Assembly: GCA_964503755.1 (NCBI GenBank)
Contig: CAZDBO010000003.1
Coordinates: forward strand, 32,686 to 96,685
Direction of reading: 5' to 3'
Length of the DNA stretch: 64,000 bases
Source of the DNA: an uncultured Candidatus Saccharibacteria bacterium
GTDB taxonomy: Bacteria > Patescibacteriota > Dojkabacteria > JAOAGR01
Part shown: piece by piece, positions 20,247 through 33,930 of the stretch
Position numbering within the stretch: the stretch's first letter is position 1
Layout: each line of letters opens with the position of its first letter
Notes under the pieces: generated by a model
Databases searched by the model: none
Seen by the model: the letters and a program-made list of their open reading frames with translations, nothing else
Told to the model about the DNA's origin: nothing
Made by a program: the position numbers and the translations under genes

Positions 20247-20603
20247 TTATATATTTAAAGCATCTTTTTCATTTATATGTTCTTCAAGTCCAATATTCTT
20301 ATCTCTTTTTCTTATGGCTTCTTCCTCTATTTGTCTTAACTCTTCTTGAGTAATATTAGTTTTAGTAATGATAATGTTAAGACAATTATCGCTAAACTCT
20401 AAAAATCCATCTTCTAATTGCATAAATATCGGCTTTGGATCATCATAATAATAAATTTTCAAAGTACCTGGCCTCAGTTTTGAAATTATCGGGACATGAT
20501 TATCATATATTTCTATATCACCCGTCACCGTTGGTAAATAAACCGATTTAATATTTGGATTCTCAAGCAAAACTTTTCCAGTAGTATAAATATTAACTTG
20601 CAT
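20247..20603 (-). CDS. atpC: F0F1 ATP synthase subunit epsilon
   Basis: 118 aa; beta-sandwich N-terminal domain pattern ([20 protein letters not shown]...G.L) directly downstream of atpD with overlap. Confidence 0.8.
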
Positions 20604-21972
20604 AGTTATTGTGATAATATTCTATTACTTCATCAATATTTCCCTTCATATAAAAACATTCTTCAGGGATGTGATCCAACTCGCCATTAATAATTTTTTT
20701 AAAACCCTCAACAGTATCAGAAACTTTTACTGATTTACCCTCTAACCCATTAAATTGAGAAGCAACAAACATAGGTTGTGTAAAAAATCTTTGTATTTTT
20801 CTTGCTCGATATACAGTCAGTTTATCATGTTCATTTAATTCTTCCATTCCCAATATAGCTATTACATCTTGGAGTTCTTTATATCTTTGCAAGATTCGTC
20901 TTACTTCTAGAGCTACTCTATAATGCTCTTCTCCAACTATTTCGGGATCAAGTGCTGTAGAACCTGATGCTAGTTGATCAATAGCAGGGAACAATGCCTG
21001 TTCTGCCAATGATCTAGAAAGTGAAATAGTAGCATCTATATGAGAAAATGTTGTAGCAGGAGCTGGATCCGTATAATCATCCGCCGGTACATAAATTGCT
21101 TGAATAGATGTGATAGATCCATTTTTTGTGGAAGTAATCCTTTCTTGAAGCCTTCCCATTTCTTCAGCCAAAGTAGGTTGATAACCCACCTCAGATGGAA
21201 GACGACCTAAAAGAGCTGAAACTTCAGAACCTGCCTGTGTAAAACGAAATATATTATCTATAAAAAACAAAACATCCTTTCCCATTTCATCACGAAAATA
21301 TTCTGCCACGGTTAAACCAGAAAAGGCTACACGCATTCTGGCACCTGGGACTGCGTTCATTTGCCCAAACAACAAAACAGTATTATTTAATACTCCTGAT
21401 GCTTGCATCTCATGATATAGATCATTTCCTTCACGGGTTCTTTCACCAACACCCGCAAATACTGAGTATCCACCATGATTTGTTGCTACAACATAAATTA
21501 ACTCTTGTATGATGACCGTCTTACCTACTCCTGCACCACCAAAAATGCCTATTTTACCACCCTTGATGAATGGTGATATCAAATCTATTGCTTTTATTCC
21601 CGTTTCGAATATTTCAGCTTTATCGGCTTGCTCATCTAGCTTTGGAGCATCTCTGTGTATTGATAATCTTTTACTAAATTTTGATTCTTTACCATCTATT
21701 GAATTACCTAATACATCTAGCATTCTTCCTAAAACTTCAGTTCCCACGGGTATTTGTATTGTATTACCAGTAGCAGTACACTCCATTCCACGCGTCATGC
21801 CTTCTGTTGAGTCCATAGCAACAGTCCGTACAATACCATTATCTAAAAGTTGTTGCACCTCTAAAATCACAGTTAATTCATCTACTCGTATTGCTTCATA
21901 AATAGAAGGACTATAGCTATCAAAAAAAACATCAACGACTGGCCCCATTACTTGCACTATCTTACCTTTCAT
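20593..21972 (-). CDS. atpD: F0F1 ATP synthase subunit beta
   Basis: 459 aa; P-loop [16 protein letters not shown]-region equivalents, highly conserved throughout. Confidence 0.95.
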
Positions 21973-21981
21973 AACTGATTG

Positions 21982-22010
21982 ATTTTATTACAGGAAAACA
22001 AAATATTCAA
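21982..22010 (-). promoter_or_regulatory. Sigma70-like promoter for atpDC (TTGAAT-17-TAAAAT), about 3-nt leader
   Basis: On the - strand: ttgaat (22010-22005), 17-nt spacer, taaaat (21987-21982), ATG 9 nt downstream. Confidence 0.4.
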
Positions 22011-22044
22011 TTTTGAACTAGGAATCGATTTATAAAAACTAAGC

Positions 22045-31312: not shown

Positions 31313-31509
31313 AAGCATATATTTATTCTAAAATCGAATTAGATAGTGAAACAAAGTCATTAGTACAAAGTTTTATTAAAGATAAATATCAGATAAATGA
31401 ATTTCAATACGAAATCGACCAAGAAATAACAGCAGGTATAAAAATAAAAATTGGGGGAAAAGTAATTGACCTTACTTCTAATTTAATACTAGAAAATATA
31501 CTATCATAA
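31309..31509 (+). CDS. atpH: F0F1 ATP synthase subunit delta, truncated (C-terminal domain only, 66 aa)
   Basis: ...ITAGIKIKIGGKVIDLTSNLILENILS matches the delta C-terminal signature (LIGG..IR.GD.VIDGS....L..L); ATGA overlap with atpF; no N-terminal helical bundle. Confidence 0.55.
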   Translation: MKAYIYSKIELDSETKSLVQSFIKDKYQINEFQYEIDQEITAGIKIKIGGKVIDLTSNLILENILS

Positions 31510-31516
31510 ATAGTTT

Positions 31517-33049
31517 ATGTTACTTGAGAAAATAAAAAAGGAAAAAAATCAAGCCAGTCCAAACATTGTCTATTCTGAAGGAAAAATTATCAAATGTTAT
31601 GATGGAATCATAATTGCTGATGGACTAGATACTGTAGGATATTTTGAGATTGTCAAAATTTATCTAAATGAAAACGAATTTGTCAAAGGTATAGCAGTTG
31701 ATCTCAGACAAGATGAAGTGGGAATTATTCCCTTAGAAGATACTACAAATGTCAAAATAGGATTAAGAGTAGTTACCACAGGCCAAAAATATACTATCCC
31801 CTGTTCTCAAGCATTTCTTGGAAGAATTATTGATATATTAGGCAATCCTATTGATGGAAATGGAGATATTTTACATACAGATCCCAAATACCAACTTGTT
31901 GAAAGAAAAGCACACGGTGTTATAGAAAGAAAATCTGTTAATGTACCATTATTGACTGGCATTACAGCAATAGATGCTCTAGTACCAATCGGTAGAGGTC
32001 AACGTGAATTAATAATAGGTGATAGGCAAACAGGAAAAACATCTCTTGCAATAGATATAATTATTAATCAAGCTAAGATCAATAATAAAATAGAAAACGG
32101 CGAAGAAAATGGTAAAAAAGTTTATAGCATATATGTCGCTGTTGGACAAAAAAGATCTAAATTAGTACAAATTGTAAATACTTTGAGAAAATTTGATGCG
32201 TTGAAATATACAATTATTGTTGCTGCCACAGCATCAGAACCTGCACAAAAGCAGTTTTTAGCACCATTTGTAGGTACCGCAATAAGTGAATACTTCATGG
32301 AAAACGGAAATGATGCTCTTATTGTTTATGATGATCTGACAAAACATGCCAAAGCTTATCGACAGATATCTCTACTTTTACGCAGACCACCAGGTCGTGA
32401 AGCTTACCCTGGAGATATTTTTTATTTACATTCAAGACTTTTAGAACGTTCTGCAAGATTGTCAGATGAACTTGGTGGCGGATCTTTAACAGCATTACCG
32501 ATCATCGAGACACAGGCAGGTGATGTATCTGCTTATATTCCTACAAATGTGATTTCTATTACTGATGGACAGATATATCTTAAATCTGAATTGTTCAATT
32601 CGGGCCAGAAACCTGCTGTCGATGTAGGTCTATCTGTATCAAGAGTCGGTGGTTCTGCTCAATATAAAGCCATAAAACAAGTAGCAGGTTCTTTACGTAT
32701 TACTTTAGCTCAATTTAGAGAACTTATTAGTTTTGTTCAGTTTGGAGTTGAGGTAGACAAAATTACTCAAAGCCGTATTGATATGGGGTTAAAATATACA
32801 GAAGCATTAAAACAAGGATTGCATGAATTATTTTCTATGCCAGAACAAGTAGTAATTTTATGGGCAATGAAAAATGGCTATTCTAATGATATAGAAAAAA
32901 GTCAAACACAGTCTTGGGTTCGACGTCTTTTAGAATTTATCAATGACCATTATCAAGAACAAATAATCAACAAAATAAATACAGAAAAGTCAATCACTGA
33001 CGAAATAGAAAATAATTTACATCAAGCCTTAAAAAATTTTAAATTTTAA
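31517..33049 (+). CDS. atpA: F0F1 ATP synthase subunit alpha
   Basis: P-loop GDRQTGKTS, conserved alpha catalytic-site residues; contains an insertion of about 20 aa (KINNKIENGEENGKKVYS). Confidence 0.95.
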   Translation: MLLEKIKKEKNQASPNIVYSEGKIIKCYDGIIIADGLDTVGYFEIVKIYLNENEFVKGIAVDLRQDEVGIIPLEDTTNVKIGLRVVTTGQKYTIPCSQAFLGRIIDILGNPIDGNGDILHTDPKYQLVERKAHGVIERKSVNVPLLTGITAIDALVPIGRGQRELIIGDRQTGKTSLAIDIIINQAKINNKIENGEENGKKVYSIYVAVGQKRSKLVQIVNTLRKFDALKYTIIVAATASEPAQKQFLAPFVGTAISEYFMENGNDALIVYDDLTKHAKAYRQISLLLRRPPGREAYPGDIFYLHSRLLERSARLSDELGGGSLTALPIIETQAGDVSAYIPTNVISITDGQIYLKSELFNSGQKPAVDVGLSVSRVGGSAQYKAIKQVAGSLRITLAQFRELISFVQFGVEVDKITQSRIDMGLKYTEALKQGLHELFSMPEQVVILWAMKNGYSNDIEKSQTQSWVRRLLEFINDHYQEQIINKINTEKSITDEIENNLHQALKNFKF

Positions 33050-33051
33050 AA

Positions 33052-33930
33052 GTGTCAGCATTACTCAATATTCAAAATAAAATAAGGGCGACGAAAAATA
33101 CAGCACAGCTCACTAAGGCTTTGGAAATGATATCTGTAACCAAGCAAAAAAAAGCCCGTGAATATATGATTTTCAATTCTGCACTTAGAGATGGTATTAG
33201 GAAGATAATTAATCAATTATACTTTCAAGAGAAATTAAAGAATTTAGGCAATGAAATATTACCAAAATATTTTCGAAAAAAATTAGAATCAAACAGACAT
33301 TTAGTAATTTTGATAATGTCCCAAAGGGGACTTTGTGGGAGCATAAATACACAATTGATCCAAAAGTTAATAAATTACAAAAAACACATACTTAGTGAAA
33401 ACAAAAATATTGAATTCGATATAATCACGGTAAATAAATATGCTCAAAAAATTTCCAAATCGTTAGACTATAATATAATAGCCTACTTTGACAGTATAAA
33501 GGATCTTCCATCAATCGAGGATACACTACCCATATCTGATTTAATAAAAAAACTATACGATGAATACGAGACTATACATATAGCATATACCCAATTTGTT
33601 AAACCTGCACGGACAACACCAACGGTAAGACCTATATTACCAATCAGTGTATCTACAGGATGGAAAGAAAATGATCTATCCTCTACTCCATACGTAATTG
33701 AACCAAATCCTATCACCGTGTTAGAAGAAATAGTAAGATTATATATTGATTTGGAAATCCATTATGCTATTCTAACATCACAAGCTTCAGAGCACACTTC
33801 ACGTATGATTGCTATGAAAAAAGCTTCGGACAATACCAAAAACTTAGTAAAAAATTTAACACTTTTGTATAACAAGGAGCGACAAGCTAAAATTACTAAA
33901 CAAACTATTGAAATCACATCATCTATATGA
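33052..33930 (+). CDS. atpG: F0F1 ATP synthase subunit gamma
   Basis: N-terminal IRATKNTAQLTKALEMISVTK and C-terminal ...ITKQTIEI helices typical of gamma. Confidence 0.85.
   Translation: MSALLNIQNKIRATKNTAQLTKALEMISVTKQKKAREYMIFNSALRDGIRKIINQLYFQEKLKNLGNEILPKYFRKKLESNRHLVILIMSQRGLCGSINTQLIQKLINYKKHILSENKNIEFDIITVNKYAQKISKSLDYNIIAYFDSIKDLPSIEDTLPISDLIKKLYDEYETIHIAYTQFVKPARTTPTVRPILPISVSTGWKENDLSSTPYVIEPNPITVLEEIVRLYIDLEIHYAILTSQASEHTSRMIAMKKASDNTKNLVKNLTLLYNKERQAKITKQTIEITSSI

Follow-up and report, generated by a model that had tools for sequence, protein, structure and literature searches.

What peripheral stalk can an F-type ATP synthase build when its delta subunit is reduced to the C-terminal domain? 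The question is raised by a 64,000-nt stretch of DNA (hereafter the window; contig CAZDBO010000003.1 of GCA_964503755.1, positions 32,686-96,685 of the forward strand) from an uncultured Dojkabacteria bacterium of the CPR. In the canonical enzyme, delta's C-terminal domain clamps the C-terminus of the b2 dimer to the N-terminal helix of one alpha subunit. Delta's other part, the N-terminal helical bundle, caps the alpha3-beta3 head on its pseudo-threefold axis, holds the remaining two alpha N-termini and allows the enzyme a single stalk.

A complete but split set of ATP synthase genes

The window contains genes for all eight F-type subunits (a, c, b, delta, alpha, gamma, beta and epsilon), with strong family matches. 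The split layout described in the initial annotation, with atpB-E-F-H-A-G on the plus strand (29671-33930) and atpD-C on the minus strand (20247-21972), was borne out for every ORF. The features are as follows:

20247..20603, minus strand: atpC, F1 epsilon, 118 aa (PF02823, 52.5 bits, residues 1-78)
20593..21972, minus strand: atpD, F1 beta, 459 aa (TIGR01039, 737 bits)
21982..22010, minus strand: candidate promoter of sigma-70 type for atpD, TTGAAT-17-TAAAAT, upstream of the gene (9/12 consensus match)
22045..23384, minus strand: secE, nusG and a MamF/MmsF-like gene (named after the Pfam labels that their orthologues carry in relatives L001 and L006)
29671..30525, plus strand: atpB, Fo subunit a, 284 aa (PF00119, 115 bits, protein 24-277 on profile 4-217)
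30579..30803, plus strand: atpE, Fo subunit c, 74 aa (PF00137, 67.8 bits)
30824..31312, plus strand: atpF, stalk subunit b, 162 aa (PF00430, 36.6 bits; TIGR01144)
31309..31509, plus strand: short atpH, delta C-terminal domain only, 66 aa (PF00213, AlphaFold2, Foldseek, dN/dS)
31517..33049, plus strand: atpA, F1 alpha, 510 aa (TIGR00962, 649 bits)
33052..33930, plus strand: atpG, F1 gamma, 292 aa (PF00231, 203 bits)

The catalytic and ion-translocating residues are in place: subunit a, which has an insertion of about 40 aa compared to the Pfam model, carries the essential arginine in an RLFG motif at residue 226, subunit c carries the carboxylate Glu56 in an IEVL motif, and beta has the P-loop GGAGVGKT at residue 145. 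A motif check of subunit c found no Na+-binding signature (Gln or Ser/Thr), which by the established c-subunit motifs points to H+ coupling of the enzyme. Epsilon gave a match to the beta-sandwich domain only, and its C-terminal region is short. The equivalog models for atpA and atpD scored above their cut-offs, while the models of the alternate F1Fo family fell far below theirs (alpha 530.8 against 750.5, beta 583.6 against 752). Alpha shows a Dojkabacteria-specific crown-loop insertion near residues 50-54. The insertion of about 20 aa that had been reported for alpha is its post-Walker-A loop, which belongs to the mitochondrial type and exceeds that of Firmicutes-type alphas by only about 12 aa. 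As the loop is equally long or longer in mitochondrial, Rickettsiaceae and Opitutaceae alphas, it was discarded as an unusual feature and is an ordinary variable loop.

The atp(I)BEFHAGDC operon is not contiguous here: atpDC is separated from the other genes by 7.7 kb and lies on the opposite strand, and a VKOR gene, whose start overlaps the atpG stop (ATGA), fills the place where atpD normally follows. The contiguous operon is kept in relatives L013, L014, L016 and L020, and in relatives with the same short delta it sits between rplKA and rplJL; L013, L014 and L020 combine it with a delta of 73-75 aa. Since relatives with a contiguous operon carry the same short delta, the atpDC split is, judged from gene order, a later, local and derived rearrangement that is independent of the delta truncation, a correction to the initial interpretation. 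The comparison of synteny called for at that stage separates the two. In the Dojkabacteria clade, the operon's G-D-C half is frequently disrupted. Immediately upstream of atpD and co-oriented with it lie secE, nusG and the MamF/MmsF-like gene, and the ancestral order secE-nusG-(rplKA)-atp operon can be read in L013 and L014; on this gene order, the secE/nusG neighbourhood of atpD is evidently a remnant of the ancestral one. The lack of atpI holds for the 60-nt gap upstream of atpB, but is unremarkable and uninformative. In cyanobacterial and chloroplast genomes atpBE lies apart from the remaining atp genes, so that beta and epsilon are likewise encoded separately from the other subunits; the Dojkabacteria split, in contrast, arose recently within the lineage, with contiguous relatives and with atpDC remaining beside secE-nusG.

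The proposal that atpDC has its own TTGAAT-17-TAAAAT promoter stands in part. The element is present at 22010-21982, but the count of promoter-like matches across the region is at chance level (23 observed against 19.2±3.7). Support for the candidate comes from four relatives, which share both hexamers and the 17-nt spacing without change but differ in the flanking bases.

Identity and conservation of the short delta

The 66-aa ORF matches the OSCP family PF00213 with 36 bits (cut-off 22.3), and the alignment covers only profile positions 104-161 of 172; against Bacillus PS3 delta, the ORF aligns to residues 108-165. The initial reading of the ORF as delta's C-terminal domain alone is thereby upheld. 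Its start at 31309 is the first start codon past the preceding in-frame stop, and the upstream DNA is occupied by the intact b gene, so the ORF cannot be extended to include the N-terminal bundle of about 100 aa that binds the alpha N-termini. The AlphaFold2 model (pLDDT 89.1) has a beta-alpha-beta-beta-beta-alpha fold, and its best Foldseek matches are delta/OSCP C-terminal domains (TM about 0.7), with a superposition on E. coli 6oqr_W of 1.2 Å over 54 residues. What remains is the alpha/beta domain that in the delta/OSCP family binds the C-terminus of b. Compared to canonical bacterial delta and mitochondrial OSCP, the short delta retains this domain, the motif G-x-x-I-x-(I/V)-x-(G/D)-x-x-(I/V)-(I/L)-D-L-(T/S), the gene order with atpF before and atpA after it (seen in the window as well as eight related operon contexts) and the translational coupling to b, whereas the whole N-terminal bundle is missing. 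Against the NCBIfam equivalog TIGR01145 it scored 26.4, below the cut-off of 57.5.

Every Dojkabacteria relative sampled, down to 60% alpha identity, encodes a delta of 66-75 aa between a b subunit of 161-166 aa and alpha, which amounts to eight distinct operon contexts. All 17 matches of a profile search were short (54-75 aa), and an exhaustive search gave 14 clusters of short delta homologues (64-81 aa), with two proteins common to both sets; all 14 short-delta family members match OSCP. A genome-contig search with alpha gave one close relative among the matches listed, and a metagenome-contig search with the short-delta alignment returned just the L014 contig already known. An exact-match look-up of the window delta gave no record, and a literature search for a short delta or peripheral stalk in CPR or Patescibacteria returned nothing relevant, most subscription-journal papers lying outside its reach. 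The short deltas are 34-43% identical across lineages whose alphas are just 60-64% identical, and with a dN/dS of 0.17-0.26 the short delta is under purifying selection; b and alpha likewise have values well under 1. Other Patescibacteria show graded truncations of 103-133 aa. As read from these sequences, delta is reduced to its C-terminal domain (66-75 residues) lineage-wide in Dojkabacteria, the rest of the F-type ATP synthase being complete.

The atpF stop overlaps the delta start (ATGA), and this translational coupling is conserved, including in the relatives. A sequencing error or programmed frameshift at the A6 run before ATGA, which would fuse b and delta, was considered and rejected, since at this place relatives have AAATGATG and keep the frame offset. 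A mycobacterial-type b-delta fusion was likewise dismissed, as the two reading frames are separate and their offset is conserved although the junction sequences differ among relatives.

Peripheral stalk number

Two papers from 2025 bear on what the loss of this bundle would mean, showing that how many stalks and a subunits are present is set by the delta N-terminal domain, and that its removal multiplies the H+/ATP ratio. In the engineered Bacillus PS3 enzyme of Ueno et al., delta residues 2-104 were deleted and residues 105-178 kept and fused to alpha, giving up to three stalks, three a subunits and an H+/ATP ratio of 5.8; the fusion was made for fear that free δΔN, whose C-terminal domain normally contacts one alpha N-terminus, would bind unstably (PMC12229609). 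The window delta has a nearly identical boundary, aligning from PS3 residue 108, and like the engineered enzyme (PDB 9jc1) it has no N-terminal domain and hence no symmetry-breaking cap. It differs in being a free polypeptide: its gene has its own stop codon and is separated from atpA by a 7-nt gap and a change of frame; delta and alpha are separate in L013 and L014, too, so attachment to alpha must be non-covalent. How delta-C attaches and how many stalks are formed we infer from the genes. A natural δΔN-alpha fusion was suspected in P0083 (672 aa), but this protein carries a full-length delta (OSCP positions 13-172) and was set aside.

Other natural enzymes offer partial parallels. The F1Fo of Chloroflexus aurantiacus, with a shortened delta N-terminal domain, has two stalks (PMC12002316), and its structures (PDB 9itj-9itu) link a reduced domain in a natural F-type enzyme to the presence of multiple peripheral stalks and a subunits. 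It nevertheless keeps a four-helix N-terminal domain (Met1-Arg85) that dimerises atop F1 (as defined in PMC12002316), while the Dojkabacteria delta has none. N-ATPases lack delta altogether (PMC5706428). Their long b subunit (TIGR03321, about 246 aa) and the E subunit of A/V-type enzymes share a stalk logic of a long helix with a C-terminal globular head and no axial cap, and the short delta weakly matches TIGR03321 positions 181-239 of 246 (E = 0.004). In Dojkabacteria, however, helix (b, 162 aa) and head (delta-C) are separate genes, which sets the locus apart from N-ATPases.

With the cap lost, the three alpha N-termini would be equivalent, and each could in principle dock its own deltaC-b2-a unit, from which multiple peripheral stalks and a subunits, up to three of each, are predicted. 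H+/ATP would then rise, so that at a low proton-motive force ATP could be synthesised, or protons pumped at less cost. As it is the missing domain that, by the engineering results, limits the enzyme to one stalk, the lineage may hold natural multi-stalk synthases. The alpha N-terminal helix needed for docking is kept (residues 2-12 in the AlphaFold2 model, pLDDT 87.7), and this amphipathic helix is conserved in the Dojkabacteria alignment; at about 5-7 residues shorter than usual it could, however, weaken docking rather than preserve it. The suggestion of an unusual peripheral stalk made at the outset is a reasonable inference from a C-domain-only delta and a b subunit without the N-terminal domain. 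We put the probability at roughly one half that Dojkabacteria possess a functional, H+-coupled F-type enzyme with a C-domain-only delta and, as predicted, more than one stalk, with the atpDC split being unrelated. The more specific proposal, that Dojkabacteria and, in graded form, other Patescibacteria build two- or three-stalk synthases with as many a subunits, in which free delta-C docks on each alpha N-terminus and multiplies H+/ATP for very low proton-motive force, is tentative and somewhat less probable.

The strongest competitor, which we nonetheless consider unlikely, is a minimal single-stalk enzyme in which the short delta clamps one b2 to one alpha, Fo assembly or expression limits the enzyme to one a subunit, and loss of the N-terminal domain is mere streamlining that leaves H+/ATP unchanged. 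CPR genomes are strongly reduced, and the graded truncations in other Patescibacteria suggest progressive erosion. Cryo-EM of the engineered δΔN-alpha enzyme also found triple-stalk particles to be extremely rare, because b2 dimers came off, and single-stalk classes that fit the wild-type structure well (PMC12229609). On the other hand, no subunit present would break the threefold symmetry once the cap is lost, the a-subunit number of the engineered enzyme tracked its stalk number with an average of about two (PMC12229609), and the rotary ATPases without an axial cap (A/V-type, Chloroflexus) all have two or three stalks.

Less probable still is that a split-off N-terminal domain of atpH or an unrelated cap protein, encoded elsewhere in the genome, restores the canonical single stalk. 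Subunit b was rejected as carrier of the missing domain, as its length is normal and the b profiles cover it from end to end (TIGR01144, protein 17-157 on profile 4-144 of 147), leaving no extra domain. No second OSCP match was found among the 100 window ORFs of at least 70 aa, and an HMM of the delta N-terminal domain, built from eight sequences only and scoring 109-112 bits on its controls, gave a best E-value of 0.22 over about 201 kb (the window and nine CPR loci, about 137 kb of related loci), in which a C-domain HMM recovered every short delta. The absence of the helical bundle noted initially is thus confirmed for this sequence, as is that of a full-length atpH, which had been named as the finding that would overturn the reading. 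The restriction of the search to the window (64 kb) and some 137 kb of related loci speaks for a supply in trans, as do several small or unannotated ORFs near the atp genes of relatives, such as one of 89 aa upstream of atpB in L014 and one of 249 aa after nusG in L013. The 89-aa ORF was rejected as a detached N-terminal domain, being hydrophobic and membrane-like with no Pfam match and no homologue in the window, and none of the eight operon contexts holds an extra conserved gene. Natural δΔN-alpha fusions, as in Acidaminococcus fermentans, likewise lack the N-terminal domain (Ueno et al. 2025, PMC12229609), so capless enzymes appear viable, and probably no such domain is supplied in trans in Dojkabacteria.

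A synthase in decay in a host-dependent organism is very improbable: the operon is fragmented in several lineages (the window, L019, L021 and the P0008 contig) and the L021 alpha is split into two ORFs, but the eight window subunits are intact with their catalytic residues, and the low dN/dS, the identity retained by the short delta across distant lineages and the conserved b-delta coupling all argue against it.

Implications for CPR bioenergetics

The H+/ATP ratio is a central number of bioenergetics and was until 2025 thought to be set by the size of the c-ring only. A candidate phylum that is naturally without the delta N-terminal domain, with a free remainder under purifying selection, constitutes a natural test of the principle that this domain sets stalk number, and its genes are ready sequences for heterologous expression and cryo-EM. 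There is also a consequence for annotation, as deltas of 66-75 aa fall below equivalog cut-offs and are sometimes labelled hypothetical, so pathway surveys may count delta as missing. If the multi-stalk reading is true, Dojkabacteria would hold a phylum-wide natural counterpart of the enzyme engineered in 2025. It might explain what fermentative CPR bacteria, whose respiratory chain is minimal or absent, do with an ATP synthase: with very little proton-motive force, these ultra-small fermenters could make ATP or keep up a membrane potential at low cost.

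The atp gene set and the short delta

The AT-rich window (GC ~30%) has its nearest named relatives among MAGs of Candidatus Dojkabacteria (candidate division WS6, CPR). All eight atp ORFs proposed in the initial annotation were recovered at their positions, and each matches the expected family:

29671-30525, + strand, atpB (a subunit), 284 aa
30579-30803, + strand, atpE (c subunit), 74 aa
30824-31312, + strand, atpF (b subunit), 162 aa
31309-31509, + strand, short atpH (short delta), 66 aa
31517-33049, + strand, atpA (alpha), 510 aa
33052-33930, + strand, atpG (gamma), 292 aa
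20593-21972, - strand, atpD (beta), 459 aa
20247-20603, - strand, atpC (epsilon), 118 aa

The a-subunit Arg, the c-subunit Glu and the beta P-loop are intact and the Na+ signature is absent from the c subunit; judged by known c-subunit motifs, the coupling ion is probably H+. Compared with the Pfam model, the a subunit carries an insertion of ~40 aa at residues ~100-145, and its length differs among relatives (241 aa in the related locus L016, 278-331 aa in Dojkabacteria). Epsilon is short, with a beta-sandwich as the sole domain detected, and its inhibitory C-terminal helical domain appears reduced, resembling the epsilon-ΔC background of the engineered enzyme of Ueno et al.

The 66-aa ORF between atpF and atpA matched Pfam OSCP at 36 bits (cut-off 22.3) over profile positions 104-161 of 172 only, and aligned with Bacillus PS3 delta at residues 108-165 and with Chloroflexus delta at residues 89-141. 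An AlphaFold2 model, built from an alignment of 14 family members, reached a pLDDT of 89.1 with a beta-alpha-beta-beta-beta-alpha fold; its top matches among solved structures were nearly all delta/OSCP C-terminal domains, including E. coli 6oqr_W (1.2 Å over 54 residues). Profile coverage, PS3 alignment and structure matches thus agree with the original proposal that only delta's C-terminal domain is present. The ORF belongs to the delta/OSCP family by its C-domain and gene position, and departs from it in having no N-domain.

An upstream extension of the short delta is impossible, since 31309 is the first start codon past an in-frame stop and the upstream DNA is the intact b gene. The stop codon of b and the start codon of delta share an ATGA directly behind a run of six A's, so that a single added A would join the two genes. 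A homopolymer sequencing error was nevertheless excluded, as the junction in close relatives from five independent assemblies (AAATGATG) keeps the same frame offset as in the window. Comparison of the window with its relatives gave dN/dS values of 0.17-0.26 for the short delta, 0.07-0.10 for b and 0.05-0.08 for alpha, and selection on all three is purifying.

The short delta was the only OSCP match, with no other among the window's 100 ORFs of at least 70 aa. Separate N-domain and C-domain HMMs were made by splitting eight full-length deltas. On two ordinary control deltas the N-domain HMM reached 109-112 bits; it found no delta N-domain in six-frame segments of the window and nine CPR loci (~201 kb; best E = 0.22). 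The C-domain HMM recovered every short delta in the same ~201 kb at 38-62 bits. The suggestion that b carries the missing N-domain was not borne out, as b has the usual length and matches the b profiles from end to end.

Distribution of C-domain-only deltas

Word-indexed searches with the short delta returned matches of 54-75 aa exclusively (five with the single sequence, 17 with a profile). When 1.84 billion cluster representatives were searched exhaustively with HMMER, 25 matched at E ≤ 0.001: 14 are 64-81 aa long, six have 103-143 aa and five are full-length (160-241 aa). Of the N-domain, the intermediate deltas retain just the end (their OSCP match starts at profile positions 55-100), and one of them, the annotated Patescibacteria delta of L016, lies in a contiguous atpBEFHAGDC operon. 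Another of them, P0144 (143 aa, Logan contig of 1581 bp), has two OSCP stretches in near-identical repeats; these tandem delta C-domains may represent another unusual stalk-head design. In P0083 (672 aa, ENA contig of 12,077 bp), a full-length delta (OSCP 13-172) is apparently fused to alpha in one ORF; the fusion may be genuine, or read-through introduced by gene calling or assembly.

Alpha homologues at 60-64% identity form a distinct tier belonging to Dojkabacteria, and each of the eight distinct operon contexts recovered (8/8) has a delta of 66-75 aa between b (161-166 aa) and alpha. Its presence in all eight contexts, together with the search results, marks the truncation as ancient and common to the entire lineage. 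The free C-domain-only delta is thus real and lineage-wide; no report of such a free-standing subunit in CPR bacteria was found in a literature search with subscription journals mostly outside its scope.

Operon arrangement and neighbouring genes

In the more distant Dojkabacteria loci L013 (AP026679.1, a 738-kb MAG contig) and L014, the gene order is secE-nusG-X-rplK-rplA-atpB-E-F-H(73-75 aa)-A-G-D-C-rplJ-rplL; the whole atp operon sits inside a normally conserved ribosomal-protein/transcription cluster (L013 4931-15476; L014 3368-17157). In the window, secE-nusG on the - strand is still followed immediately by atpD-C, atpBEFHAG is 7.7 kb off on the + strand, and neither rplKA nor rplJL is present. 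The operon is broken after atpA on the P0008 contig, and is interrupted in loci L019 and L021 by genes inserted between A, G and D. Since short-delta relatives have contiguous operons and other lineages break elsewhere, the atpDC split is a derived, local change that is unconnected with the shortening of delta. The split noted initially stands as a feature separate from the short delta, as the intact operons of L013 and L014 carry a delta of 73-75 aa.

The proposed atpD promoter, TTGAAT-17-TAAAAT at 22010-21982 (-), exists as a 9/12 match, and such matches occur at chance level in the region. Both hexamers and their spacing are unchanged in four relatives and the flanks vary, making the element a fair phylogenetic footprint of a candidate promoter. 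Read-through from secE-nusG is a further possibility, as no terminator-like site was found between atpD and the genes that precede it.

On the Dojkabacteria-like contig L021, alpha is split into two ORFs (263 + 227 aa; 5623-7167) and separated from gamma by two inserted genes, one for a metallophosphatase and one of the baeRF family; the metallophosphatase insertion also occurs in L019. The slot in the window where atpD normally follows atpG is filled by a VKOR-family gene (33927-34523, +; 198 aa; PF07884, 107 bits), whose start overlaps the atpG stop in ATGA. This coupling is retained in the related loci L002, L004 and L006; no VKOR gene was called in L001, whose contig is shared with L002-like sequence. 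Divergent from atpB is a 343-aa ORF with no Pfam match (28579-29610, -; conserved, at 336 aa, in all close relatives), its 3' end overlapping tRNA-Arg(CCT) on the opposite strand (28537-28613, +). A 600-aa ORF (9293-11095, -), presumably glmS, has a glmS ribozyme upstream of it (11159-11329, -; Rfam RF00234, 139.9 bits).

Alpha subunit and peripheral stalk

The reportedly unusual alpha insertion of ~20 aa proved to be an ordinary loop following the Walker A helix, ~12 residues longer than in Firmicutes-type alphas and near mitochondrial length (it exceeds the yeast and Toxoplasma loops by just 3-4 residues, and some Opitutaceae-like alphas have a longer one). In the alpha model it is a confidently predicted lengthening of helix 174-193 plus a short loop. 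The nearest alpha homologues outside Dojkabacteria (54-57% identity) include Rickettsiaceae and Opitutaceae with a long loop, which could reflect AT-rich composition, shared loop ancestry or transfer. More relevant than this loop are the N-terminus and the crown. Dojkabacteria alphas start ~5-7 residues later than usual, keeping the conserved amphipathic N-terminal helix (predicted at residues 2-12 in the window), and have in common up to 6 inserted residues in a crown loop near residues 50-54. This insertion falls in the N-terminal beta-barrel domain, where the stalk joins the top of F1.

In the canonical enzyme, the delta C-domain binds both the C-terminus of b2 and the N-terminal region of one alpha, and the N-domain sits on the pseudo-threefold axis, bound to the other two alpha N-termini (PMC12229609). 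Ueno et al. removed residues 2-104 of PS3 delta and fused the retained 105-178 to alpha; the resulting δΔN-alpha enzymes had as many as three stalks and three a subunits, an H+/ATP of 5.8, and could produce ATP at low pmf (PMC12229609). The same authors pointed to δΔN-alpha fusions that occur naturally in Acidaminococcus fermentans, and predicted that multi-stalk enzymes exist in nature (PMC12229609). Chloroflexus aurantiacus, with a shortened delta N-domain, has two stalks and two a subunits (PMC12002316). The domain boundary of engineered PS3 δΔN is practically equal to that of the Dojkabacteria short delta, which is a free subunit, unlike the δΔN-alpha fusion. Membership tests placed the short-delta enzyme outside the N-ATPases, mycobacterial b-delta fusions, Chloroflexus-type deltas and δΔN-alpha fusions. 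N-ATPases are without delta, and their longer b resembles the E subunit of A-type enzymes (PMC5706428). Against the N-ATPase b model, the short delta has a weak match in the C-terminal part, which points to a related stalk logic.

By analogy with these systems, the best reading is a functional enzyme in which the axial cap would be lost with the delta N-domain and a deltaC-b2-a unit could dock at each alpha N-terminus. Because every alpha N-terminus could do so, more than one peripheral stalk is likely, stalk number and attachment mode both being predictions. A minimal enzyme with a single stalk is a less probable outcome. Supply of the delta N-domain or another cap in trans seems more doubtful still, a distant or non-homologous cap encoded beyond the ~201 kb searched leaving it some room. 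A decaying complex has little support in view of the purifying selection and the complete subunit set. The short delta makes natural multi-stalk F-type ATP synthases a directly testable question.
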